Assembly: GCA_020634395.1 (NCBI GenBank)
Contig: JACKBU010000014.1
Coordinates: 16,118 to 80,117, forward strand
Reading direction: 5' to 3'
DNA from: Ardenticatenaceae bacterium
GTDB taxonomy: Bacteria > Chloroflexota > Anaerolineae > Promineifilales > Promineifilaceae
Length of the DNA: 64,000 nt
Shown: one piece after another, positions 3,802 through 62,671 of the stretch
Position numbering within the stretch: position 1 is the first letter of the stretch
How the letters are laid out: every line of letters starts with the position of its first letter
Notes under the pieces: generated by a model
The model's database searches: none
The model's input: only the letters and a program-made list of their open reading frames with translations
Told to the model about the DNA's origin: nothing
Made by a program: the position numbers and the translations under genes

Positions 3802-4060
3802 AAAAGGACTCCTTCGGCAAGATTTCAACGCAGAGGCGCAAAGCCGCAGAGATGTAGTGAGCATAATCTCACTGGTCTCATTGCCTGCGTGTTGCTGGGC
3901 CGCCGCGTTTGTTGTCTCTGTGGTGGAACGGCCGTCTGACGATCATGGCGCTGATTATACCGTGTGCCCTAACCGAGAGGTAACGCTGACGGCGCACTGC
4001 GGTGAAACGGCCGTTCCCCTTTTTGCGTAAAGAGAGTGTCGTTTATCAACCATCGGGGAG

Positions 4061-5083
4061 TTGACCACTGGCGACGACCCAACAATGGCAGCAAACATGG
4101 TCACCTTAGCAGAATTTGAAGATCTAAACACCCAATTAATTGCCACCCGTAAACTCATCCGCGAACAGGAGCGCCTGCTGAACCTGATGGCCTCGCTGGA
4201 CGAGCAGCTGCGCGAGTCACGCCGCCGCCTTTCCAGGCTGGTCACGCGCCTGAAGTATGAGAAGGCCGACGTACAGGCTTTAGAAAGCCTGAGCGTAGAG
4301 GCGGTTTTTTATGCCTTGCTGGGCCGGCGCGAGCAGCAGTTGGCCCGCGAGGCCCAGGAGTACCTGGAAGTTAAAATGGAGACGGCCGCCTGCCGTCTGC
4401 GCATTGACAGCCTGGAACGCACCCTGCAGGCGCTGCAAGCCGACCTGGTGGACATTGTAGGCTGCGAGGAAGAGTATGCGCGGCTGCAGCAGGCGCAGGA
4501 AGCGCTGATTGTAGCCCTGGGCGCGCCGGAAAGCAGCCGCCTGGCGGAAACGCTGCGGGCCCTGGCCGTCAATGTGCAGTTCCAGAAGGAGGTGCGTGAA
4601 GCGGTAGAGGCCGGCGTGGCCGCCCTGGCGCGTTTAACGGCCGTCACCGATGCCCTGCTGGAACTGCGCTCCTGGGATGGCGTGTGGAGCATGGAGTTTG
4701 CCGAGGCGGGAAACGGCCGTTTCGCCCAGGTATTTGCGCTGGCCCACGAGGCCCAACCGCTGCTGGATCGCTTCCAGGCGGAATTGGTGGACGTGGAGCG
4801 GCAGTTCTTTAGCCCGCTCGACATGCGCATCCCGGCGCAGGCTGCGCCCACGCTGGTAACCTTGCCGGGCGCGCTGCTGGATCTATTTTTCCCCGAAGCG
4901 CAGGTTCCTGGCACGTTGCGCGATTGGTATACCTACCTGACCCAACTGCAGCGCCGCCTGCAACTGCGGCTGGACCTGCTGCAAGAGAGTTTGCAAGCTG
5001 TGGACGGCCGTCTGCTCCATCTGCGGCAGCAGCGGGCCGACCTGGTGGCCGCGTGCTGGGCGGCGGAGCGATTTGGCGGCTAG
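4061..5083 (+). CDS. hypothetical coiled-coil protein (start uncertain, ATG at 4085 possible)
   Basis: 340-aa ORF with coding-like composition and long heptad-like Leu/Glu/Arg-rich helices. No family recognised. Confidence 0.5.
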   Translation: MTTGDDPTMAANMVTLAEFEDLNTQLIATRKLIREQERLLNLMASLDEQLRESRRRLSRLVTRLKYEKADVQALESLSVEAVFYALLGRREQQLAREAQEYLEVKMETAACRLRIDSLERTLQALQADLVDIVGCEEEYARLQQAQEALIVALGAPESSRLAETLRALAVNVQFQKEVREAVEAGVAALARLTAVTDALLELRSWDGVWSMEFAEAGNGRFAQVFALAHEAQPLLDRFQAELVDVERQFFSPLDMRIPAQAAPTLVTLPGALLDLFFPEAQVPGTLRDWYTYLTQLQRRLQLRLDLLQESLQAVDGRLLHLRQQRADLVAACWAAERFGG

Positions 5084-6324
5084 GCCCGACCCAGCGCCCT
5101 GGCCACATGATGCACCAGCCGCTCGGCCACGGCCGTTTTGCTTAGCAGCGGCATCTCTTCCACCACCCCCGCCGAACTGAGCAGCACCACGCGGTTGGTG
5201 TCGACGGCAAAGCCCGCGCCTTCGGCCAGCACGTCGTTGACGGCGATGAAGTTGAGGCCCTTGCGTAAGAGTTTTTGACGGCCGTATTCAAACGCGTCAT
5301 GGGTCTCGGCGGCGAAGCCCAGCGACACGCGCGGGTAGCCGGTCTTCTCGCGCCGCTCCTTCACCGCGCTCAGAATGTCCAGCGTTACCTCCAGGCCAAT
5401 GGCCAGCCCCCAGCCGCCGTTGCCTTCCTCGTCCTGCTCCGTCTTTTTGATTTTGCGGTCCGACTGCCGCTCCGGGCGGAAATCGGCCACGGCGGCGACC
5501 ATGAACAGGGCGTCGGCGTCGGCGGTGGCCGCCAGGACGGCCTCGCCCATTTGCTGCGTCGTCTCCACGTCGAAGCGCGTCACGCCCTGGGGGGCCGGTT
5601 CGCTGATGGGGCCAGCGATAAGCGTGACCCGCGCCCCGGCGTCCAGCGCCGCCTGGGCCACGGCCAGCCCTTGTTTGCCCGTGGAGCGGTTGCTGATGTA
5701 GCGCACCGGGTCCAGCGCTTCCCGCGTCGGGCCGGTGCTGACGACGACGTGCAGCCCGGCCAGCGGGCCGGACCGGGCCAGGGCCAGGCGCACGGCGGTC
5801 AGCAGTTCGGGCGGCTCCACCATGCGGCCTAATCCGCTCAGGCCGGAAGCCATGCGCCCCTCGGCCGGGCCGACAAATTCCACGCCGCGCTGCTGCAGCG
5901 TGGCGATGTTGGCCTGGGTGGCGGCGTGGTCGTACATGCCGCCGTCCATGGCCGGGGCCAGCAGGAGGGGACAGCGGGCGGCCAGCGCCGTCACCGTCAG
6001 CAGATTGTCGGCAAGGCCGTGGGCCAGTTTGGCGATGGTGTGGGCAGTGGCCGGGGCGATGAGGTAGAAATCGGCCGTTTCGCCCAGCCCGACGTGGCGC
6101 ACATGGTCGTCCAGGTCCCACATCGAGGTGAAAACCGGCCGCCCGGTGACGGAGCGGAAGGCCAGCGGCGTGACGAACTTCTGCGCCGCTTCGGTCATGA
6201 TCACGTCGACTTGCGCCCCGGCCTGGGTGAGTTTGGAGGCCAGGTCGATGCTTTTGTAGGCGGCGATGGAGCCGCTGACGCCGAGAAGGAGTCGTTTATT
6301 TTGTAAAAGGGTGATGGGTTCCAT
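5080..6324 (-). CDS. coaBC: bifunctional phosphopantothenoylcysteine decarboxylase / phosphopantothenate-cysteine ligase
   Basis: 414 aa. N-terminal flavoprotein motif LLGVSGSIAAYK. C-terminal CoaB-like ISNRSTGKQG and AAVADF. Confidence 0.95.
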   Translation of the reverse strand: MEPITLLQNKRLLLGVSGSIAAYKSIDLASKLTQAGAQVDVIMTEAAQKFVTPLAFRSVTGRPVFTSMWDLDDHVRHVGLGETADFYLIAPATAHTIAKLAHGLADNLLTVTALAARCPLLLAPAMDGGMYDHAATQANIATLQQRGVEFVGPAEGRMASGLSGLGRMVEPPELLTAVRLALARSGPLAGLHVVVSTGPTREALDPVRYISNRSTGKQGLAVAQAALDAGARVTLIAGPISEPAPQGVTRFDVETTQQMGEAVLAATADADALFMVAAVADFRPERQSDRKIKKTEQDEEGNGGWGLAIGLEVTLDILSAVKERREKTGYPRVSLGFAAETHDAFEYGRQKLLRKGLNFIAVNDVLAEGAGFAVDTNRVVLLSSAGVVEEMPLLSKTAVAERLVHHVARALGRA

Positions 6325-6502
6325 AGTTCACTTGTTGGTCATCCGTTTTCCGTGGTCTGTGGGGTGTATTGTCGCAGAAAACGGCCGTGTGGACTAGATT
6401 CGGTTAAGAAATGGGACGCGGATTGTTAGGGATGCGGCGGATTTTCGCGGATACAAATCAGCTCTAACCGTTCTCCGTTCATTGTTATCTGTTGATTGTT
6501 AG

Positions 6503-6586
6503 GCACCGCCCGCACAATGCCATGCACTACCCGCACAGTGCCATGCACCGCCCGCACAGTGCCACGCACCGGCCGCAATGCTCTCA
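6503..6586. repeat. 21-bp tandem array A (about 4 copies, unit GCACCGCCCGCACAGTGCCAT)
   Basis: Units at 6503, 6524 and 6545, plus a degenerate unit at 6566, read directly. Confidence 0.85.
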
Positions 6587-6593
6587 TCCCCAC

Positions 6594-6950
6594 GGGGATG
6601 ACCATTGAGAACACGGGGATGACCATTGAGAACGCGAGGATGACCATTGAGAACGTAGGGATGACCATTGAGAACATGGGGATGACCATTGAGAACGTGG
6701 GGATGACCATTGAGAACACGGGGATGACCATTGAGAACGTAGGGATGACCATTGAGAACACGGGGACGACCCTTGAGAACGTGGGGATGACCATTGAGAA
6801 CACGGGGATGACCATTGAGAACGCGGGGATGACCATTGAGAACATGGGGATGACCATTGAGAACATGGGGATGACCATTGAGAACGTGGGGATGACCATC
6901 GAGAACACGGGGATGACCATCGAGAACACGGGGATGACCATCGAGAACGC
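6594..6950. repeat. 21-bp tandem array B (17 copies, unit GGGGATGACCATTGAGAACRY)
   Basis: Exact 21-nt periodicity from 6594 to 6950. Variation is almost entirely transitions within a 3-4-nt window. Intergenic, between the coaBC start and the stop of the DHH gene. Confidence 0.95.
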
Positions 6951-7012
6951 AGGGACGGCCGTTGCCGTGGCACGCTCAGCTGTTGGCCGCCAGGGAAACG
7001 GCCGTTTCCCCC

Positions 7013-8167
7013 TCAGCGTTGTCCGTTGCGCGCTCTGCGTTCGCTCTCTGCTTCGGCGGTTACCCCAATTTTAGCCAGGATCTTGCGCTTCACCTGGCTG
7101 TCGAATACCCGCCACTTCAGGTCGCGATAATCGTCGGCATGATTGCCCGATAGAAATCCGACTGGAATTTCAAAACCACCGGCCGATACTTTGCCGCCGC
7201 CATAATAGTGCCCGGCCGTATTTTTGCCGAACGCCTCTTTGATAAATTCATCCGGGTTGATGGTGAGTTTGGACGTGCGCATGGAGCCTTCCAACTTTTC
7301 TACCTGATCATTGTGGATCACAATGCCATAAACAATCGCCGTATGCACAATGCCCTCGGTCAGCAAAAAGTCGGCCGCCTGGGGAATGGCGTCCCGGTCT
7401 TCGGCACGCAGATAACCGGCCCCGGCAATCGAAAAATTTTCCACCAGAATGCGATTGCCCAAAGCCTTATGGATAACTTCCATCACTTGCTTAGTGTGCG
7501 ACTGGTTCATAATCTGGTCCAACATGGGCGCATCCACAAACTGGCTCAGGTAAGCGGCCGCCTGGAAATCGGCTTTGCCGGCGTGAATAAAATTGTTGGT
7601 GTCGGTAATAAGACCGTGCATCAGGCCGGTGGCGGCGATGGTAAATTCTTTCTTGGCCGGATTCATCTCGATCACGCCCTCGGTCAGGTATCCGGCATAG
7701 ATAGTGGCCGTCGCCCCGACAGCGCGCACGTCTAGAAAGGTGGGCTGCAAGCGGTCCTGCGGTTCGTGGTGGTCGATTACAATAAGCGGCGTGACGCCGG
7801 CTTTCTCCAGGGCAGTGGTAATCGCTTCGCAGGTTGTGCCCTGGTTGTCAATAAAAACGGCCGCATCATACTGCCGGGGCAGTTCACCCTGATACTTCAC
7901 CAGCTCCAGGTCCAGCAGGCGCACCAGGGCAATATTTTGTTCATGGCTCACCCGCCCGGCATAGAGGATGTCGGTTTCAATCCCATATTCCGCGCTGATT
8001 AGCTGGTGGGTGTAGGCGCAGGAAATAGCATCCGGATCCGGAAAGTCTTGCAAGACAATCGCGTGATAGTTTCCCGAATGGGCAGTCAGGATTTGTTTTA
8101 GAGTGGAGGCGGAATGGTTGTCCTCTAGAAGCAGTTTAACGTTAGGAGTTTCTTGTTTTTCCATCAT
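7013..8167 (-). CDS. DHH/DHHA1 family phosphoesterase (NrnA-like)
   Basis: VIDHHEP DHH motif and a C-terminal GGGKVSAGGF DHHA1-type motif. Start at the ATG-ATG pair (8167) or at GTG 8197. Confidence 0.8.
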   Translation of the reverse strand: MMEKQETPNVKLLLEDNHSASTLKQILTAHSGNYHAIVLQDFPDPDAISCAYTHQLISAEYGIETDILYAGRVSHEQNIALVRLLDLELVKYQGELPRQYDAAVFIDNQGTTCEAITTALEKAGVTPLIVIDHHEPQDRLQPTFLDVRAVGATATIYAGYLTEGVIEMNPAKKEFTIAATGLMHGLITDTNNFIHAGKADFQAAAYLSQFVDAPMLDQIMNQSHTKQVMEVIHKALGNRILVENFSIAGAGYLRAEDRDAIPQAADFLLTEGIVHTAIVYGIVIHNDQVEKLEGSMRTSKLTINPDEFIKEAFGKNTAGHYYGGGKVSAGGFEIPVGFLSGNHADDYRDLKWRVFDSQVKRKILAKIGVTAEAESERRARNGQR

Positions 8168-8295
8168 GTTGTTCCCATGTAGACAGCCGCGAGCCACGGC
8201 TCACGAGCTTCAGCGATATAAAGTTGTAAGCGAAGGCAGGCTCGTTGCCAGACGAACCTGCCTTCTTCTTTCCTTTACCAACTGTGTGGCAAGGA

Positions 8296-11957: not shown

Positions 11958-12533
11958 CTACTGGCCCGCCAGCTGCTCCCGCAGTTCTTTTTCCTTTTCT
12001 GACGATAACGTAGAGGAGATTAAGGTCGGGTCATAAGCGCGCAGTTTTGCCAGCAAGGCATCCCGGTCATTGGCCTTGCCAAGTACCAAAAGAGCTGAAC
12101 TGTTGGGCTGCAAACGCTGTTTGATGGCTTCAATGCTCTTATCGCTAATGCCAAAGTCTCTTAACGAGGCTGTAATGCGGCCCAAGCCCGCGCCAATAGC
12201 AATGCCTGCTATCGGCCCGCCGATGAGGATGCCGGCCAACAAACCGATGCCCGCGCCTCGCCTGGTGTACTTGCCCTTGGGCGCATGCGTTTGCACCACG
12301 CGGATGCGATTCTCGTCGGCCACGCCGGCCGGGACAACCGCGCCGCCATCCCCAAACGAAGCGGAAGTGGGCGGCGCTACCAGGCCATCTTCCCCTTCGG
12401 CGCGTTCAAGGATGATGGCATCCTCTACTTCCACCAGACCGTCTTTCTCCATTTGCTCGATCTCTTTATAGACAGTCGAGGCTGTATCGAATCCCACAAA
12501 GGTTAATACAATAAAGTTATTACTGTCAGCCAT
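11958..12533 (-). CDS. DUF1269-like glycine-zipper membrane protein (copy 1)
   Basis: N-terminal IVLTFVGFDTASTVYKEIEQMEKDGLVEVEDAIILER, glycine zipper GAGIGLLAGILIGGPIAGIAIGAGLG, C-terminal FGISDKSIEAIKQRLQPNSSALLVL. Confidence 0.8.
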   Translation of the reverse strand: MADSNNFIVLTFVGFDTASTVYKEIEQMEKDGLVEVEDAIILERAEGEDGLVAPPTSASFGDGGAVVPAGVADENRIRVVQTHAPKGKYTRRGAGIGLLAGILIGGPIAGIAIGAGLGRITASLRDFGISDKSIEAIKQRLQPNSSALLVLGKANDRDALLAKLRAYDPTLISSTLSSEKEKELREQLAGQ

Positions 12534-12695: not shown

Positions 12696-13268
12696 TTACT
12701 CTGCTAACCGCGCCCGTAATTCAGCTTCAACCTCAGGGGTCAGGCTGGAAGAAACAACCTGCGGACTATAGGGACGAAGCTGCGCCAAAAACGCCTCCTG
12801 ATCAGCCGTGTGGCCCAGCACCAGCAGGCCAGAGCTGTCTGGCTGCAGACGCCGCCGGATGGCCGTAATGTTTTCGTCGCTGATGCCAAAATCTTTTAAT
12901 CGGGCCGAAACTGCCCCAATGCTGGCCCCTACTGCCAGCCCTAGCACCGGTCCACCCAGCAGCACGCCGGCCAGCAGCCCCAGGCCGCCTCCGCGCCGGG
13001 TATATTTGCCCTTTTTGCCATGCGTTTGCTTTACGCGGATCGAGTCCTCGATGGAGTGGGGCGCTTTGGCTGCCGTGCCGGCCTTGTCGGGAAAGGCCTG
13101 GGCTGGCGAAAGACTTTCCGGCGCGTCCGCGTCATCTCGCTCAAGGATGATGGCGTCTTGTATGGCAAGCAGCTGATCTTTTTCCATTTTTTCGAGTTGT
13201 TCGTAAACGGTCGCGGCCGTTCCCACTCCCTCAAACGTCAGGATAAGCAGCGTATTGTTCTCAGACAT
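12696..13268 (-). CDS. DUF1269-like glycine-zipper membrane protein (copy 2)
   Basis: Paralog of copy 1: LLILTFEGVGTAATVYEQLEKMEKDQLLAIQDAIILER ... GGGLGLLAGVLLGGPVLGLAVGASIG ... FGISDENITAIRRRLQPDSSGLLVL. Start at ATG 13268. Confidence 0.8.
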   Translation of the reverse strand: MSENNTLLILTFEGVGTAATVYEQLEKMEKDQLLAIQDAIILERDDADAPESLSPAQAFPDKAGTAAKAPHSIEDSIRVKQTHGKKGKYTRRGGGLGLLAGVLLGGPVLGLAVGASIGAVSARLKDFGISDENITAIRRRLQPDSSGLLVLGHTADQEAFLAQLRPYSPQVVSSSLTPEVEAELRARLAE

Positions 13269-13714
13269 TGTCACACCTTTTCTATGTAGTTGGCCGCTGG
13301 ACTGTTTTCCGGACGTGTCGGACAGCCAACAAAACGGCCGTTTCTGGGACCAGCGCCCAGGGTTACGATATTCGGCCACGGCAAATACATCAGTTGGAAA
13401 ACCCGATTGCTGTCTCCATTATACTTCTTTGGCCGCACTATTCCCTAGAAACTTGTCAAAACAATGTAAGCCAGCGGTAGAAGGACGTGTAGTACCAAAA
13501 AGGTGCACGAATGGGGGATTTCTCCATCGTTCATCTTCCTTGTAAGTTCTCTTCACACTCCTGAGAAATGGGTTACAACTTTCATACATCCTTTTGGTGC
13601 TACGCAGTCCTAACCCCATTATTCTATGATGATAACGGTTTCAGATTATCAAACCATTCAGGCTGCTTTCGCCCTTAACAGCGAGTATAAGCCAAAATCT
13701 AACAGGAGGAATGC

Positions 13715-16087
13715 ATGTCCAACCGGCCAGATAAACATTTACGGGCGCAATTACCCATCCCCGATGTGCCCAAACCAGGATTAACCACCTACGATGCCAA
13801 AGACCCGGATACCAAATATCCCCCCATCGAACCGCTGCGTCCCCCTGAAGGGGCACCCAACGTTCTAATTATCTTGCTGGACGATGTAGGCTTTGGCGCA
13901 TCCAGTGCCTTCGGCGGTCCGTGTAACACGCCCGCGTTTGAAAGGCTGGCAGCCGGCGGGCTGAAATACAATCGTTTTCATACGACTGCCCTGTGCGCCC
14001 CCACCCGCCAGGCCTTAATGACCGGCCGCAACCATCATTCGGTCGGTATGGGCAACATCACCGAAACCGCTACGGCCGCACCCGGTCAAAACTCGCTGCG
14101 TCCTAACACAAAAGCCCCCATCGCGCTGACTTTGAAACTGAACGGTTACTCTACCGCCATGTTTGGCAAGTGCCATGAAGTTCCCGTCTGGGAAAACAAT
14201 CCGATGGGGCCTTTCGAGCACTGGCCGGCTGGCGGCGGCGGCTTTGAATACTTCTATGGCTTCATCGGCGGCGAAAACAATCAGTGGGACCCTGCTCTTT
14301 TCGAGGGCCTGACCCCCGTCGAGCCGCCAGCCACTCCCGAAGAGGGATACCACCTGACCGAAGATCTGGCCGATCATGCTGTGAACTGGATTCGGCAGCA
14401 AAAAGCCCTGATGCCCGACAAACCATTCTTCGTCTACTTCTCTCCCGGTGCGACCCACGCTCCGCACCACGTGCCCAAGGAGTGGGCCGACAAGTACAAA
14501 GGGCAGTTTGGGCACGGTTGGGACAAACAACGCGAGATCACCTTTGCCCGACAAAAAGAACTGGGTGTCATCTCGCAAGACTGTGATCTGACTCCCCGTC
14601 ATGCCGAGATTCCTGCCTGGGATGATATGCCCGAAGAACTGAAGCCGGTGCTGGAACGTGAAATGGAGGTATATGCCGGGTTCCTGGAGCACACCGATTA
14701 CCACGTTGGCCGGGTGATTGATGTTCTGGAAGAGCTGGAAATTCTCGATGATACGCTCATCTTCTGCATCATCGGGGACAATGGCGCGTCCGCAGAGGGT
14801 ACGCTAAATGGCGCCTTCAACGAAATGGCTAATTTTAACGGCCTGGCTGCTCTAGAAACGCCCGAGTTCATGCTCTCTAAGATGGACGAGTTTGGCTCGC
14901 CGAGTTCGTATAACCATTATGCTGTGGGTTGGGCCTGGGCCATGGATGCACCGTATCAGTGGACCAAACAAGTCGCTTCTCATTGGGGTGGCACCCGCAA
15001 TGGCACCATCGTGCACTGGCCGAAAGGCATCCAGGAGAAAGGCGGGCTGCGTAATCAGTTCGGCCACGTTATTGACGTTGCCCCGACTATCCTGGAAGCA
15101 GCCGGTTTGCCGGAGCCGGTTTTTGTCAACGGGGTGCAGCAGTCGCCAATGGAAGGCACGAGCATGCTGTACAGCTTCAACGAGGCTGCCGCGCCTGAAC
15201 AACATGAAGTGCAATATTTTGAGATGTTTGGCAACCGCGGCATCTATTACAAGGGCTGGAGCGCCGTCACCAAACATCGCACCCCGTGGCTGATGGTGGG
15301 GCAGAAGATGGTGGCTTTTGATGACGATGTGTGGGAGTTGTACGATGGCAGCAAAGACTGGTCACAGGCCCGCGATCTGTCTAAAGAAATGCCCGATATG
15401 CTGCACAAGCTGCAGCGCCTCTGGTTGATCGAGGCTACCAAGTACAACGCTATTCCGCTGGATGACCGGCAAGTCGAGCGCATTATTCCAGAGTTGGCGG
15501 GCCGTCCTACCCTCATCCACGGTAATTCACAGTTGCTGTTTCCAGGGATGGGACGACTTTCAGAACTCAGTGTGCTCAACCTGAAGAACAAATCGTTCTC
15601 GGTTACAGCCGAGATTGAGGTGGGCAACAAACCGGCCCATGGCGTTATCGCTGCCCAGGGTGGCCGGTTTGGCGGCTGGAGTGTGTACGCCAAGAACGGC
15701 ACGCTCAAGTTTTCTTATAACGTGCTGGGCATTCATGAGTTCACTATTGAAGCGACGGAGCCGATTTCCCAGGGTAGACACCAGGTGCGGATGGAGTTTG
15801 CCTACGACGGTGGCGGATTAGGGAAAGGCGGCACTGTCACGTTGTATTATGACGGCCGTCTGGTGGGTAACGGCCGTGTGGACATGACCCAGGCCATGAT
15901 CTTCTCGGCAGACGAAACTTTGGACATTGGCTATGAAGCCGGCACGCCGGTTGCAACGGATTACACCACCCACGACAGCAAGTTCACCGGCAAAATTCAT
16001 TGGGTACAGCTTGACGCGGGTCAAGACGATCACGATCACTTTATTGATCCTGAAGAGCGCCTGCGTATTGCCATGGCGCGCCAGTAA
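13715..16087 (+). CDS. large arylsulfatase (Cys-type, formylglycine-dependent)
   Basis: LLDDVGFGASSAFGG and the sulfatase signature CAPTRQALMTGRNHH. GATHAPHH. 790 aa. GGAGG RBS. Confidence 0.9.
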   Translation: MSNRPDKHLRAQLPIPDVPKPGLTTYDAKDPDTKYPPIEPLRPPEGAPNVLIILLDDVGFGASSAFGGPCNTPAFERLAAGGLKYNRFHTTALCAPTRQALMTGRNHHSVGMGNITETATAAPGQNSLRPNTKAPIALTLKLNGYSTAMFGKCHEVPVWENNPMGPFEHWPAGGGGFEYFYGFIGGENNQWDPALFEGLTPVEPPATPEEGYHLTEDLADHAVNWIRQQKALMPDKPFFVYFSPGATHAPHHVPKEWADKYKGQFGHGWDKQREITFARQKELGVISQDCDLTPRHAEIPAWDDMPEELKPVLEREMEVYAGFLEHTDYHVGRVIDVLEELEILDDTLIFCIIGDNGASAEGTLNGAFNEMANFNGLAALETPEFMLSKMDEFGSPSSYNHYAVGWAWAMDAPYQWTKQVASHWGGTRNGTIVHWPKGIQEKGGLRNQFGHVIDVAPTILEAAGLPEPVFVNGVQQSPMEGTSMLYSFNEAAAPEQHEVQYFEMFGNRGIYYKGWSAVTKHRTPWLMVGQKMVAFDDDVWELYDGSKDWSQARDLSKEMPDMLHKLQRLWLIEATKYNAIPLDDRQVERIIPELAGRPTLIHGNSQLLFPGMGRLSELSVLNLKNKSFSVTAEIEVGNKPAHGVIAAQGGRFGGWSVYAKNGTLKFSYNVLGIHEFTIEATEPISQGRHQVRMEFAYDGGGLGKGGTVTLYYDGRLVGNGRVDMTQAMIFSADETLDIGYEAGTPVATDYTTHDSKFTGKIHWVQLDAGQDDHDHFIDPEERLRIAMARQ

Positions 16088-16097
16088 GGAGACCGAA

Positions 16098-19004
16098 ATG
16101 AGCAAAGAAAAGAATATTATCATCATAGCGGCTTATCAGGCGGTTGAACCAGCTGTGCAAAATTTTGAGGCACTGGTCCAACTCGTCAAAAAGAAGTCGG
16201 TAAAGGCTGATGGCATGATCCTGGTGCAAAAGGACCAGGACGGCCACATAACTGTGAGCGAAACAGGGGACCATCTAGGCCGTAAGGGCGTAGAGTGGGG
16301 CGGAGGCGTTGGCCTGCTCGTGGGTCTCGCCGCACCCCCGCTGCTTACTTCGGTGGCCGTAGGGGCCGCCGCCGGCGCCGTGGTGGGCAAGTTCGCCAAG
16401 CACAAGATCGTCGATAACCTGGAAGGTGGGCTGGGTGAAAATCTCAAGCCGGGGCAGGCCGCCATTTTGGCCATCGTCGCGGAAGGGGATCGCCTCGCGG
16501 CTGAACAGGCATTGGTTGACTCACCGGCCAAATCAGTGGCCGTGATGGATGAGGGCGGCGCTAAAGGTCTCAAGGCGGCTCTGAATGAGGCGCGGGGTAA
16601 ATTCAGTCCGGATCGCACCGTGCTGCCCATCCCTGACCGTAAGTTTGGCGGCGCGATTGCCCGTACGATGGAAGATGCAGTGCCCGATTACAGCTTTATC
16701 CCTGGCCCGCAGCCACCGGAAGGCGCACCCAATGTGCTGCTCGTTTTGATTGACGATGCTGGTTTTGGCGGTCCGGAAGCGTTTGGCGGTGAGATTCATA
16801 CACCAGCGTTGTCGCGGCTGCAAGAGATGGGACTGACGTACAATGCGTTTCACGTAACGGCCGTTTGCTCCCCCACTCGTGCTGCCATGCTAACCGGCCG
16901 CAACCATCACCGCGTGGGCATGGGCGGCATCGCTGAATTCCCCGGCCCCTTCCCCGGTTACACCGGCACGCGGCCACGCACCTGCACCGCGCTGCCCCGT
17001 ATTTTGAAAGAAAACGGCTACGTTACCGGCGGATTCGGTAAGTGGCACATGACCCCCGGTCACGAAATGGGACCGGCCGGGCCATTTGAGCATTGGCCGC
17101 AAGCCTGGGGCTTTGACCATTGGTGGGGCTTCCTCACCGGTGCGGCTGGCCAGTATGATCCGATCATCACGCAGGACAACTCCGTTCTCGGTGTGCCTGA
17201 AGGCAAAGACGGCGAGTTATACTACTTTCCCGATGACATTACCGATAAAAGCATCGAGTGGCTGCACAGCGTTCGTGCCCATAACGCCCACAAGCCCTGG
17301 TTCCTTTATTACTCCACCGGAGCGACCCACGCCCCGCATCATGTGGGTAAAGAGTGGGCGGACAAATACAAAGGTCAATTCGATGATGGCTGGGATGCCT
17401 ACCGCGAAAGAACCCTGGAACGCCAGAAGAAACTGGGCATTGTGCCAGCAGACACCGAACTGGCCCCTCGTCCCGATCCCTATCCCGCCTGGGACACCCT
17501 CACCGATGCGGAAAAGAAACTATACGCCCGCCAGATGGAAGTCTTCGCTGGCTTCTCAGAGAATGCCGACTGGAATATAAACCGGCTGATTGACGAAGTT
17601 GAAGCGATGGGTGAGTTAGAAAACACCCTCATCGTCTACATCTGGGGTGACAATGGCTCCAGCATGGAAGGCACCACCACCGGCTCCTTCAACGAAACCA
17701 CCTTTTTCAACGGCATTGTCCTCAATGCCGAAGAGCAGTTGGCGTTGATCGAGAAATGGGGCGGCATTGAAGAACTTGGCGGTGAGTACACCGCCCCGCA
17801 TTTTGCGGCGGCCTGGGCCCATGCCAACAACACCCCCTTCCAATGGGGCAAGCAGATGGCCAGCCATCTGGGTGGTACGCGCGATCCGATGGTCATTGCC
17901 TGGCCAAACCACATCAAACCCGACAGCAAAATCCGCAGCCAGTTTACGCACTGCATTGACGTGGCGCCCACCATTCTGGAAGCCATCGGCATTCCCGAAC
18001 CAAAGATGGTTGACGGCATCGAGCAAGAACCGATGGATGGCACCAGCTTTGCCTACACCTTTGAAGATGCAGAGGCAGAAGAACGTCATACGGTGCAATA
18101 CTTTGAGATGTACGGCAGCCGCGCCATCTACAAGGATGGCTGGTGGGCCTGTGCCCGGCTGGATAAGCTGCCCTGGGATTTCTCGCCGACGACGCTGGCG
18201 CGTTTCAAACCGGGCAGTGGTTACAATCCGGACGATGATCCCTGGGAACTCTACTACCTGCCCGACGATTTCAGCCAGGCCAAGAATCTGGCGGACGAGC
18301 AGCCGGAGAAACTGGCGGAACTGAAGGAACTGTTCTGGCAGGAGGCAGAGCGTAACCGGGCGCTGCCGTTGTTGGGCGGTCTCTCCGTGTTCTTTGGCAT
18401 CTTGCCGCCGATGGACACAACCACGCGCTTCAACTTTGCCGGTGACGTGCAGAATGTGTCTACGACGGTGATTCCGCGCATTTACGGCCGTTCCTACGCC
18501 ATCGAAGCAGAACTGGAAGTGCCGGAAGAAGGGGCTGAAGGTGTCTTGTGTGCCTTCGCCGACTTCATCGGCGGCTTCGCGCTGTGGGTTGATGAAAATG
18601 GCCACCTCGTTCACACCTACCAGTTCCTGGGCATCGACACCTACAAGCAAGTTTCCACCGAGCCAATCCCGACCGGCAATGTCACCGTGAAAATGCTGTT
18701 TGAGATTGATGAGCCAAAACCAGGGGCCGGCGGCAACGTCACCCTGTGGGCCAACGACAAGCAGATTGGCGAAGGCCGGATGCCCCATTCCGTGGCCATG
18801 TTGTTCACAACCTATGCCGGTATGGACATGGGTCGCGACAATGGCGGCGTTGTAGATCTGGATTATGAGGACAAAGCGCCCTACGCCTTTACCGGCAAGT
18901 TGAAGAATGTGGTCTTTGACCTGAAACCGGCGCACATGGAAGCGGAGAAAGCGCTGCATGAACATCGCGCCATCCACGAAGTGGCGGCAGGTGTGGCCGG
19001 TTAG
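16098..19004 (+). CDS. fusion protein: N-terminal DUF1269-like domain (copy 3) + Cys-type arylsulfatase
   Basis: ATG 16098 preceded by AAGGAG. N-terminus IIIIAAYQAVEPAVQNFEALVQLVKKKSVKADGMILVQKDQDGHITV plus zipper GGGVGLLVGLAAPPLLTSVAVGAAAGAVVG. Then LIDDAGFGGPEAFGG and CSPTRAAMLTGRNHH. Confidence 0.8.
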   Translation: MSKEKNIIIIAAYQAVEPAVQNFEALVQLVKKKSVKADGMILVQKDQDGHITVSETGDHLGRKGVEWGGGVGLLVGLAAPPLLTSVAVGAAAGAVVGKFAKHKIVDNLEGGLGENLKPGQAAILAIVAEGDRLAAEQALVDSPAKSVAVMDEGGAKGLKAALNEARGKFSPDRTVLPIPDRKFGGAIARTMEDAVPDYSFIPGPQPPEGAPNVLLVLIDDAGFGGPEAFGGEIHTPALSRLQEMGLTYNAFHVTAVCSPTRAAMLTGRNHHRVGMGGIAEFPGPFPGYTGTRPRTCTALPRILKENGYVTGGFGKWHMTPGHEMGPAGPFEHWPQAWGFDHWWGFLTGAAGQYDPIITQDNSVLGVPEGKDGELYYFPDDITDKSIEWLHSVRAHNAHKPWFLYYSTGATHAPHHVGKEWADKYKGQFDDGWDAYRERTLERQKKLGIVPADTELAPRPDPYPAWDTLTDAEKKLYARQMEVFAGFSENADWNINRLIDEVEAMGELENTLIVYIWGDNGSSMEGTTTGSFNETTFFNGIVLNAEEQLALIEKWGGIEELGGEYTAPHFAAAWAHANNTPFQWGKQMASHLGGTRDPMVIAWPNHIKPDSKIRSQFTHCIDVAPTILEAIGIPEPKMVDGIEQEPMDGTSFAYTFEDAEAEERHTVQYFEMYGSRAIYKDGWWACARLDKLPWDFSPTTLARFKPGSGYNPDDDPWELYYLPDDFSQAKNLADEQPEKLAELKELFWQEAERNRALPLLGGLSVFFGILPPMDTTTRFNFAGDVQNVSTTVIPRIYGRSYAIEAELEVPEEGAEGVLCAFADFIGGFALWVDENGHLVHTYQFLGIDTYKQVSTEPIPTGNVTVKMLFEIDEPKPGAGGNVTLWANDKQIGEGRMPHSVAMLFTTYAGMDMGRDNGGVVDLDYEDKAPYAFTGKLKNVVFDLKPAHMEAEKALHEHRAIHEVAAGVAG

Positions 19005-52270: not shown

Positions 52271-53692
52271 ATGTCTTCAGTTCCTTATCCCAAAATATTC
52301 GTTGTTGTCAATCCTGCTTCCGGGAAGGACGAACCCATTCTCCATGTGCTCAACCACGTCTTCCGGCAGTATGACGTGCAGTGGGAGGCGGACGTTACCC
52401 ACAAATTTGGCGACGCTACCCGCCTGGCCCGGCAGGCTGCCGCCGCCGGCTACGACCTGGTGGCCGGGTACGGCGGCGATGGCACCCAGCACGAAATTGC
52501 GAACGGCCTGCTCGGCACAACGGCCGTGATGGGCATTCTGCCCGGCGGCACAGGTAACGGCTTTGCCAACGAGATCGGCATTCCCAAAACTCTGGCGGAG
52601 GCGACCGAACTGCTGTGTACCAGCAGCGAACTACGGCGCGTAGACGCCGTACAGATGGGCGACCAGTACTTCGTCCAGCGCCTGTACGTGGGCATCGAAC
52701 CCGAGGAACAGACGAGCCGCGAAATGAAGGACAAATATGGCGTTCTGGCTTATGGTATTTCGGCTTACCAGCAGACGACCCACCATCCCGAGTACCAGTA
52801 TCGTCTCACGGTTGACGGTGAGGTCATTGAGGTGTCGGGAACGAAGTGCTACGTCATCAATTCGGGGCGAACGGGCACTGGCCTATCGGTGCTGGGGCAT
52901 AATTTTGCCGTGGATGATGGTTTGCTGGATGTTTTTGTGCTGAACACCCACAACGTGGAGACGCTGGTGGCGGCCACCGATCGTTTTCTGAACCTGGGTA
53001 CCGAACGGTCAAAACAGTACTTCTGGCGCGGTAAGGAAGTAACGATTGAAACGACGCCTGATCAGCCCGTTTGGACGGATGGGGAATACGCGGGACGCAC
53101 GCCCGTCAGCGTAAAGGTGCTGCCTGGCGCTCTGCGCATCGCTGCGCCAAAGCCGCAGGTGTTTGCCAAGACGGTGTACGACGCAGTTTTGACGGTGCAT
53201 GAAGGGCACGACACGGCCGTTGCCGCTTATGAAGCGCTTCTGGCCCTGGAAAAGGAAAAGGCTGTCAAGCTGCATATGGCTGCTGTTATCCGCCGCCGCG
53301 CCAATGGCAAGCTGCGCATCGAGCACAAACGCGGCGCTTCGGCCAGTAAGGGCATGGTGGGCGGCGGGGCGATTGGGCTGCTGTTGGCGGCGGCGACCGG
53401 GGGCGCGACGTTGGGTGTAACGGCCGTGGCCGCCGGTATAGGCGCACTCGTCGGTTCCTCCCGGTCCGGCTTGCAGAAAGAGTTAAAGCCGTTGCTCGAC
53501 GATAAGCTCGGTGCAGACGATTCTGCCCTGGCTTTTATTATCGAGGCAGCCGACGTCCAGCGGGTGCGAGAAACGCTGAATAACTTTGGCGGGCAGATGC
53601 TTATAGCCGAGTTGTCGCCGCAAACCGAAGAACAGCTGCTGGCCATTGATCAAAATGAAGAACTGGCCGCGGCGTTGAACACGATGGAGTGA
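52271..53692 (+). CDS. fusion: DAG-kinase-like lipid kinase + C-terminal DUF1269-like domain (copy 9)
   Basis: VVVNPASGK, VAGYGGDGT and GILPGGTGNG. From about 53170: VYDAVLTVHEGHDTAVAAYEALLALEKEKAVKLHMAAVIRRRANGKLRIE...GGGAIGLLLAAATGGATLGVTAVAAGIGALVG...DDSALAFII. Confidence 0.75.
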   Translation: MSSVPYPKIFVVVNPASGKDEPILHVLNHVFRQYDVQWEADVTHKFGDATRLARQAAAAGYDLVAGYGGDGTQHEIANGLLGTTAVMGILPGGTGNGFANEIGIPKTLAEATELLCTSSELRRVDAVQMGDQYFVQRLYVGIEPEEQTSREMKDKYGVLAYGISAYQQTTHHPEYQYRLTVDGEVIEVSGTKCYVINSGRTGTGLSVLGHNFAVDDGLLDVFVLNTHNVETLVAATDRFLNLGTERSKQYFWRGKEVTIETTPDQPVWTDGEYAGRTPVSVKVLPGALRIAAPKPQVFAKTVYDAVLTVHEGHDTAVAAYEALLALEKEKAVKLHMAAVIRRRANGKLRIEHKRGASASKGMVGGGAIGLLLAAATGGATLGVTAVAAGIGALVGSSRSGLQKELKPLLDDKLGADDSALAFIIEAADVQRVRETLNNFGGQMLIAELSPQTEEQLLAIDQNEELAAALNTME

Positions 53693-54856: not shown

Positions 54857-54965
54857 TGTGGAAACTGAGTTGTGGCGTGTGGAAACTTGACTGTGGAGCG
54901 TGGAAACTTGACTGTGGCGTGTGGAAACTTGACTGTGGAGTGTGGAAACTCGACTGTGGAGCGTG
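54857..54965. repeat. 21-bp tandem array C (5 copies, unit TGTGGAAACTTGACTGTGGAG)
   Basis: GGAAAC recurs at 54860, 54881, 54902, 54923 and 54944. Lies 110-220 bp upstream of the HIT gene. Confidence 0.9.
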
Positions 54966-55073
54966 GGTTGAAGTTAGATTGTCGTGGCTACGAACAACTG
55001 TCGCCTCCCGGCGGGGGCGGCGAGGTAGTTTTGGGGTGCGGCCGGTTAGCCGCTGCGCCCATCTGGAGGTAAC

Positions 55074-62564: not shown

Positions 62565-62599
62565 CTTATTTCGCCTCGGATGACGGAGTTGATTAGTTG

Positions 62600-62661
62600 G
62601 TTTGTTGGTTTGTTTGTTGGTTGGTTTGCTACCTAACCAACCAACAAACAAACCAACTAAC
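62600..62661. repeat. low-complexity hairpin with a 23-bp perfect stem
   Basis: 62604-62626 GTTGGTTTGTTTGTTGGTTGGTT pairs perfectly with 62635-62657. 8-nt loop TGCTACCT. Confidence 0.9.
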
Positions 62662-62671
62662 AAACTTCTTC

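Follow-up and report, generated by a model that had tools for sequence, protein, structure and literature searches.

A probable mosaic, copy-number-variable intergenic repeat element with 21-bp tandem arrays beside coaBC in a filamentous Chloroflexota lineage

Intergenic repeat elements composed of short modules are found in several groups of bacteria. The BOX elements of Streptococcus pneumoniae have the layout boxA-boxB(n)-boxC with a boxB module of ~45 bp and fold into stable RNA or DNA structures. The repetitive extragenic palindromes (REP) and bacterial interspersed mosaic elements (BIMEs) of enterobacteria are extragenic mosaics of palindromic units, which often lie between convergent genes or within operons and form variable tandem clusters. 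The mycobacterial interspersed repetitive units (MIRUs) measure 40 to 100 bp, and some of them are located between genes of one transcription unit. Cyanobacteria carry the highly iterated palindrome HIP1 (GCGATCGC), and filamentous cyanobacteria contain the short tandemly repeated repetitive (STRR) heptamers; we know of no explanation for the function of either HIP1 or STRR. Here we describe an element in a stretch of 64,000 nucleotides from contig JACKBU010000014.1 of an Ardenticatenaceae bacterium (Chloroflexota), termed the window below, in which two 21-bp tandem arrays, A and B, lie between coaBC and a DHH-family gene. The element is most likely a previously undescribed mosaic, copy-number-variable intergenic repeat and appears to be neither translated nor an iteron nor a centromere. 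The arrays probably represent amplified parts of a non-coding, polar element of the BOX/BIME/MIRU type.

The element appears to resemble BOX in being polar, modular, intergenic, dispersed, non-coding, and lineage-restricted, with an internal module that is variably repeated. Its sequence is unrelated, however, the unit measures 21 bp, no folding signal was found, and two modules (A and B) rather than one are amplified. A likeness to BIMEs would lie in the ACGGCCGT-based palindromes flanking the arrays and in the combination of several dispersed modules, whereas the repeated unit of BIMEs is itself a hairpin-forming palindrome and the B unit appears to be a decayed palindrome without hairpin potential. 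With MIRUs the element would share the intergenic tandem repeat, a period that as a multiple of 3 keeps open reading frames (ORFs) open, and a copy number that differs between close strains, but it belongs to a different sequence family, and no evidence of translational coupling with its neighbors was found. The parallel to HIP1 and STRR may consist in filamentous bacteria combining an iterated octamer palindrome (ACGGCCGT, 1.6 per kb) with many short, presumably intergenic arrays; phylum and sequences differ, and arrays A and B have no recognizable heptamer substructure.

Layout and distribution of the element

Tandem arrays were mapped with Tandem Repeats Finder and then read in register on the sequence. 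The program placed array A at positions 6503-6577 (period 21, 3.6 copies, 0% indels) and array B at positions 6591-6955 (period 21, 17.4 copies, 90% matches, 0% indels, score 555); the features in register are listed in Table 1. The fourth unit of array A, GCACCGGCCGCAATGCTCTCA (6566-6586), is degenerate, and the differences between the A units are transitions. In array B, unit 9 is divergent and units 15 to 17 have an ATC in common. The 17-nt core GGATGACCATTGAGAAC is exact in 13 B units, has one mismatch in three units and two mismatches in one unit, and occurs nowhere else in the window (0.08 matches expected by chance; none of 100 shuffles reached 18). A preliminary description of this DNA had reported two abutting 21-bp arrays of 4 and 17 units. 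The exact period and the unit numbers were borne out, array A consisting of three full units and a degenerate one. The arrays do not strictly abut, since the degenerate A unit and the 14-nt junction J intervene and the two registers are offset by 7 nt. Within the junction, CATCCCC complements the GGGGATG that comes next.

Repeat modules pack the whole stretch from 6468 to 7010. The terminal unit that follows array B is probably close to the ancestor of the B units. The 18-bp palindrome beyond it can pair with 6952-6963 into a long stem, and further copies of this palindrome are present at 1603-1621 (exact), ~4700-4727 (91-95%), and 4001-4020 (90%). For the GCGGATT-rich module on the coaBC side, the depth of Logan contigs from runs X3-X5 over ~6376-6469 by far exceeded that of the flanks (by a factor of roughly 10 to 20 for X3 and X4), and many different loose contig ends start at 6404-6410 and 6452-6453; no second copy of the module was found in the 64-kb window. 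Heptameric order is confined to the 35-nt run at 6468-6502: Tandem Repeats Finder gave no period-7 row for array A or B, and an origin of the 21-mers from heptamers was discarded, as no internal 7-nt similarity was found. A clustered regularly interspaced short palindromic repeats (CRISPR) array was also rejected, since the units stand head-to-tail with only 3 variable nucleotides and no unique spacers.

Table 1. Coordinates of the repeat modules, the flanking genes, and the long ORFs running across the arrays
Feature	Position	Strand	Remarks
GCGGATT-rich module	6404-6453		contains …GACGCGGATTGTTAGGGATGCGGCGGATTTTCGCGGATA; on the coaBC side of the arrays; occurs as a dispersed repeat across sludge metagenomes
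Heptamer run	6468-6502	+	five degenerate heptamers (CCGTTCT CCGTTCA TTGTTAT CTGTTGA TTGTTAG) abutting array A
Array A	6503-6586	+	three full 21-bp units GCACCGCCCGCACAGTGCCAT (6503, 6524, 6545), then a degenerate fourth
Junction J	6580-6593	+	14 nt, GCTCTCATCCCCAC; from the sequence and comparison with other loci
Array B	6592-6948	+	17 units RYR-GGGATGACCATTGAGAAC, x-first register (6594-6950 in the register of the preliminary description)
Terminal degenerate unit	6949-6969	+	GCAGGGACGGCCGTTGCCGTG; retains the intact octamer palindrome ACGGCCGT at 6955-6962
Perfect 18-bp palindrome	6993-7010		GGGAAACGGCCGTTTCCC; 2 nt past the DHH-family stop codon
coaBC	5080-6324	-	Flavoprotein and DFP domains (Pfam)
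DHH-family gene	7013-8197	-	weak Pfam match, 25.1 bits vs 28.1-bit cut-off; stop codon at 7013-7015
Long ORF across arrays	6496-7074	+	
Long ORF across arrays	6426-6941	-	
Long ORF across arrays	6584-6973	-	

In the following, L001 to L080 denote coaBC loci of relatives and L201 a locus of Candidatus (Ca.) Leptovillus affinis. A scan of metagenome contigs with the core yielded mostly single chance matches plus nine loci with real arrays (L083, L086, L092, L135, L143, L151, L159, L170, and L175). An ECF sigma gene and a CBS-domain gene flank the L201 array, and a further array, L202, adjoins the 3′ end of a GMC oxidoreductase gene. The arrays at these loci also sit between long ORFs, and their gene flanks vary (ECF sigma/CBS, ABC-type exporter 3′ end, GMC oxidoreductase 3′ end, and others). 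The polar order of A-type units, junction GCCCTCATCCCCAC, and B units is constant: at all loci analyzed, the first B unit directly follows a recognizable version of the junction (0 to 6 mismatches to GCCCTCATCCCCAC), which in turn is preceded by one to ~10 A-type units. The A-type unit itself varies by locus, with GCACCGCCCGCACAGTGCCAT in the window and GCACCAGCCATTTTGTGCCAT (~9-10 units) in L092 and L175. The heptamer run and ACGGCCGT palindromes are often present at other loci, too; comparison of the upstream flanks placed the heptamer run ahead of the arrays in L143, L151, and L170. Overall, at least eight distinct loci show the modules arranged as heptamer run, A units, junction, B units, and palindrome, and the proposed layout of the element accordingly runs from a heptamer run through A-type 21-mers, junction J, and B 21-mers to a palindrome.

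There is one copy of the family in the 64-kb window and none in ~0.9 Mb of the relatives' coaBC loci, the B core being absent from all 80 of them. Single metagenomes hold several flanks: sludge contigs matching the array end in many different flanks, which indicates that several array loci coexist per community. The family is confined to one genus-level lineage; the element appears to be particular to Ca. Leptovillus and its kin among the filamentous Chloroflexota of activated sludge. Its orientation relative to flanking genes is mixed; in several loci the arrays run in the direction of the upstream gene, in two they are divergent, and a position between convergent genes is frequent.

The number of B units ranges from 2 to 17 across loci. 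L135, L159, and L201 are 91-95% identical in both flanks and contain 11, 4, and 6 units, respectively. Such differences at orthologous loci indicate the behavior of a variable-number tandem repeat (VNTR). L086 and L143, with 8 and 3 units, have only the right flank in common (94%), which would again place an array at a breakpoint. Private variants occur in adjacent units, as with the ATC in units 15-17 of the window, or in 42-bp blocks: AGC and TCC alternate twice in units 8-11 of L135 as a duplicated 42-bp block, a 42-bp block is repeated twice in units 3-6 of L175, and units 6-11 of the window form a V-T-V-T-V-T series. This is the pattern expected of slippage or unequal exchange. The arrays would hence grow and shrink by blocks of one or two units, probably through replication slippage or unequal exchange, and resizing of this kind could give rise both to the VNTR behavior and to concerted evolution inside each array. 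The family offers a ready VNTR marker for strain typing of abundant filamentous sludge bacteria.

Recurrent transitions at presumed ancestral CpG sites of the B unit

Among the 17 B units of the window, the three variable positions of the unit carry A (10 units) or G (7), C (9) or T (8), and G (15) or A (2). The earlier claim that a stretch of 3-4 nt in the unit changes by transitions only therefore holds for the three positions, which show A/G, C/T, and G/A solely. Outside the triplet, the 17 units contain one G>A adjoining it, one T>C, one A>C as the only transversion, and a T>C common to the last three units. All four combinations of the first two triplet positions are found within one array, indicating that the changes are recurrent and were not inherited once.

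Variation across the family was tallied over 71 B units. The ancestral unit is likely to have been GCG GGG ACG GCC GTC GAG AAC, with five CpGs. Every ancestral CpG is toggled by transition at one or two of its positions (positions 1, 2, 3, 8, 13, and 15; 110 transition cells in the 71 units), and the nine other G/C positions of the B unit contain 4 transition cells in the same units. The variable triplet is best explained by recurrent CpG transitions, and CpG-type deamination, as put forward in the preliminary description, could account for the pattern at the toggling sites. The toggling can be read as a natural archive of transitions that depend on sequence context.

The B unit may itself have arisen from a palindrome. 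By three transitions, GGGG-ACGGCCGT-TGAGAAC would be converted to GGGG-ATGACCAT-TGAGAAC, and the states ACGGCCGT, ACGGCCAT, ATGGCCAT, ACGACCAT, and ATGACCAT were all seen in B units of the family. Units bearing the palindrome are mostly located at array edges; these include the terminal unit in the window as well as first or last units with ACGGCCGT or ACGGCCAT in L086, L151, and L170. This distribution suggests decay from the ACGGCCGT palindrome to the B core. The hypervariable triplet would then be a CGCG-derived linker containing the remaining CpGs of the unit, which mutate recurrently by transitions.

Alternative explanations

Translation into a small heptad-repeat protein, MPCT…ALIPT-(GMTIENx)n, in which a single residue of each repeat is hypervariable, would account for the plus frame that is open across both arrays, for a variable triplet that forms one codon (T/A/V/M), and for an 'ALIPTG' ahead of the repeats in several loci. 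Some replacements also look conservative (I/V/L, and T to S via two different codons), but the two Ser codons of L135 alternate as the duplicated 42-bp block and thus represent two events only. We regard translation as highly improbable, because no frame shows coding constraint: the synonymous fraction of variant cells in the 71 units equals the random expectation in all six frames (0.24 vs 0.21 in the GMTIEN frame), which speaks against purifying selection, and the three minus-strand frames are likewise stop-free in the consensus unit. ORF starts, stops, and C-terminal tails are not conserved between loci, no Shine-Dalgarno sequence was read before the candidate starts, in-frame stops are present in conserved DNA upstream of the arrays (window and L143), and the last unit of L092 contains an in-frame TAG. 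A search with the plus-ORF protein gave four matches among 5.8 billion proteins, all of them ORFs called across such arrays, with those of L201 and L202 among them, and the Pfam matches of the three ORFs (DUF211 with 23.7 bits, Collagen_mid, and PASTA) were dismissed as repeat artifacts, as no single stretch passes. The ORFs are, as had been proposed, artifacts of a period divisible by 3 and should not be annotated as genes; one such ORF has already been deposited as a hypothetical protein of Ca. Leptovillus affinis. An RNA-level element, in which the array acts within a neighboring mRNA (possibly a minus-strand DHH-family-to-coaBC read-through) or within an RNA of its own, as a stabilizer, a protein sponge with a GGAUG in each unit, or an intercistronic spacer, is less improbable than translation but still rather doubtful. 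The window does not contain the coaBC promoter box of the closest relatives and both neighboring genes are on the minus strand, so that coaBC may need transcription across the array; G-U wobble would tolerate transition-only variation, and hairpin-forming palindromes lie on the array flanks. However, the folds predicted for 6460-7012 are on either strand slightly less stable than those of dinucleotide shuffles (z = +1.8 and +0.9), the only strong stem being that of the palindromes beyond the DHH-family stop codon, and Rfam, searched at the gathering threshold for the whole window and at E ≤ 10 for 6250-7150, returned one chance match only. A promoter and terminator scan of 6325-7012 revealed no such site, the element is not oriented uniformly with respect to transcription of its flanks, and no RNA run containing the stretch was found. 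Likeness to the GGCGTATAAT box of relatives hinted at a plus-strand promoter, which could not be substantiated. A CsrB-like sponge was rejected in view of the lack of hairpin presentation and of a dedicated promoter and the inconsistent orientation; of the CsrA consensus, only GGAUG is present. Least probable of all is an iteron array or parC/parS centromere-like site of an integrated or cryptic replicon, which the preliminary description had brought up and which we consider largely refuted. The 21-bp direct repeats have iteron-like size and arrangement in a long uninterrupted array, but the composite element occurs at at least nine unrelated loci with freely varying unit number (2 to 17) and in the window lies among chromosomal housekeeping genes. 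In agreement with the lack of a nearby Rep or Par gene stated in the preliminary description, Pfam detected no Rep or Par domain in the 14 long ORFs between 36 and 19,004. BLAST searches of 72,556 plasmids and 50,697 phages gave no match, and the array region has a GC content of 0.54-0.56 throughout, with no AT-rich stretch.

An assembly artifact, with the array expanded, collapsed, or scrambled during assembly or polishing, would be conceivable because short-read k-mer contigs cannot span 357 bp of near-identical 21-mers and because every aligned contig differs at some positions (6565 C>T, 6582 T>C, and 6676 A>G). It is nevertheless very unlikely: contigs from public sludge runs reproduce exactly the left border (6424-6558 and 6360-6547), the neighborhood of the divergent unit (6722-6802), and the right border (6920-7008), k-mers of the array were ~5-20 times as deep as those of the flanks in eight runs, which stem from several studies, and independent metagenome contigs contain arrays of this family that vary in the same way. 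The more serious competitor, although clearly less probable than a passive repeat, is a protein-binding array in which the 18-bp core would be the recognition site of a lineage-specific DNA-binding protein, for example a nucleoid-associated protein, a regulator, or a protein also reading ACGGCCGT. Spacing by 21 bp would align 2 to 17 sites on one helix face and leave the 3-bp linker free as long as it is purine-pyrimidine-purine. The exact period without indels and the decayed or near-palindrome in the core (ATGACCAT, ATGGCCAT) are consistent with this idea. Several observations weigh against a neutral mosaic repeat and its CpG transitions, some of them in favor of such a protein. The 18-nt consensus of the B core is identical in all 11 arrays at different loci and in different species, although coaBC DNA differs by ~15% between host species, and A-type units, unlike the B core, differ at 6 of 21 positions between loci; the flanks diverge as well. 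Neutral arrays should drift apart, so that either recent spread or constraint on the B core has to be assumed. The linker is purine-pyrimidine-purine in 70 of the 71 units, which a shape-reading protein or wobble pairing would also allow. The deamination proposal fits the toggling of each ancestral CpG and the near-invariance of other G/C positions, but CpG is not depleted across the window (observed/expected 1.01), and a genome-wide CpG decay was thus not seen. The C just before the triplet (AAC), though part of a CpG, never becomes T, and the C5-methyltransferase motif PC[QK]x[FWY]S had no match in the window, which is a weak test with a single-motif regular expression on ~1% of the genome. 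Furthermore, the figure of 17 units is the count of an assembly, as k-mer contigs break inside the array. Identity of the B core can be explained by recent spread plus concerted evolution as well as by a core-reading protein. Against the protein speak the free variation of the unit number, orthologous loci included, the lack of a constant position or orientation relative to promoters or genes, with many arrays between convergent 3′ ends, and the restriction of the family to one genus-level lineage. The helical argument has also lost weight. The preliminary description had equated 21 bp with two helical turns, yet about half of the tandem arrays of relatives have a period of 7, 14, or 21 bp, which suggests that the clade favors periods of 7n rather than a phasing by helical turns, and with periods of 7, 8, 12, 14, 22, and 24 bp among other arrays of the clade phasing is no common theme. 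That the arrays are expandable multi-site landing pads on one helical face, with a shape-constrained linker and a putative protein possibly also reading ACGGCCGT, appears somewhat less likely still than protein binding as such. The reading as amplified parts of a mosaic intergenic repeat is preferred, and the array element probably has no dedicated function.

Genomic context and other repeats of the clade

The CoaBC protein of the window shares 92% identity with its counterpart in Ca. Leptovillus affinis; exact look-up found neither this CoaBC nor the DHH-family protein on record. The 80 related loci all stem from metagenome-assembled genomes (MAGs) of Ardenticatenaceae, Promineifilaceae, or other Anaerolineae, many of them from activated sludge, and the public runs holding this stretch are activated-sludge or wastewater metagenomes from 2016 to 2025. 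Ca. Leptovillus is a filamentous sludge genus (PMC10746286). The genes around the arrays code for an S41 peptidase, SmpB, a cytochrome c protein, CoaBC, the DHH-family protein, a fasciclin protein, a LuxR-type response regulator, and sulfatases.

The arrays begin 179 nt upstream of the coaBC start codon; on their other side, the end of the last B unit is 64 nt downstream of the DHH-family stop codon. The arrays had been described as filling the coaBC upstream region; they are intergenic, but the space is that between two minus-strand genes and is not specific to coaBC. The coaBC ATG is the exact point at which DNA similarity between the window and its closest relatives ends, and no counterpart of the DHH-family gene was detected within 6 kb on either side of coaBC in the relatives' loci. 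The four closest relatives (L001, L002, L056, and L059) contain a GGC[G/A]TATAAT box 63-211 nt upstream of coaBC, and nothing similar is present in the window between 6325 and 7012. The end of similarity and the missing box indicate that the array marks a rearrangement breakpoint that replaced the ancestral coaBC upstream region and with it the promoter region. With the box missing, coaBC may depend on a new promoter or on DHH-family read-through across the array. The array would here be a passive spacer at the breakpoint, separating coaBC from the hairpin that lies beyond the DHH-family stop codon. Repeat-like sequence, including a 13-bp tandem at 7024-7055, extends through the 3′ end of this gene (7013-7060), and the C-terminal tail of the protein may be a by-product of the mosaic element.

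The octamer palindrome ACGGCCGT is present in 103 copies in the 64 kb (1.6 per kb; for example at 6955, 6998, 1608, 4007, and 4713), compared to 8 copies of the next commonest 8-mer palindrome. Inside long ORFs lie 86 of the 103 copies, and single-mismatch neighbors of the octamer are 6 to 240 times rarer. Among loci L001-L080 and L201, high density is clade-specific: Ca. Leptovillus, Ca. Leptofilum, and many of the Ardenticatenaceae MAGs have 1.3-2.6 copies per kb, and the density amounts to 0-0.4 per kb in Ca. Promineofilum glycogenicum (L020) and in L016, L018, and L052 and to ~0 in loci of Anaerolineales and Phototrophicaceae. A literature search found nothing on ACGGCCGT as a repeat or on highly iterated palindromes in Chloroflexi. 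Together with the many presumably intergenic 7n-bp arrays of this Chloroflexota clade, the octamer, with its parallels to HIP1 and STRR, is possibly a more valuable lead than the arrays themselves.

The loci of relatives (L003-L069) are rich in short tandem arrays, among them the heptamers ACCGATT, TACGGAT, CAATTGT, and ACGGAAC (example arrays: L006 670-747, L009 3346-3458, L031 5919-5974, and L059 1-67). In five relatives, unrelated arrays lie at most 450 nt upstream of coaBC, as in L003 (5655-5842, a 22-bp unit in 8.6 copies). The window itself has a second intergenic 21-bp array at 54857-54966, upstream of a HIT-family gene, with 5.2 units of TGTGGAAACTTGACTGTGGAG. Each unit contains TGTGGAAAC, which resembles a DnaA box, and TTATCCACC is located just upstream; a reading of this array as an origin of replication was rejected, as there is no GC-skew switch in the window. 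Two further arrays, (GTTGGTTT)n at 62588-62628 and (AACAAACC)n at 62635-62665, stand in inverted orientation to each other where two long ORFs leave a gap, and an 8/16/24-bp tandem array (ACTTGAACACCTGAAC…) is found at 1054-1111 between the S41 peptidase gene and smpB. DUF1269 occurs four times in the window (11958-12533, 12696-13379, 15927-19004, and 52271-53692), twice as a stand-alone protein, once fused to a sulfatase, and once fused to a diacylglycerol-kinase-like protein.

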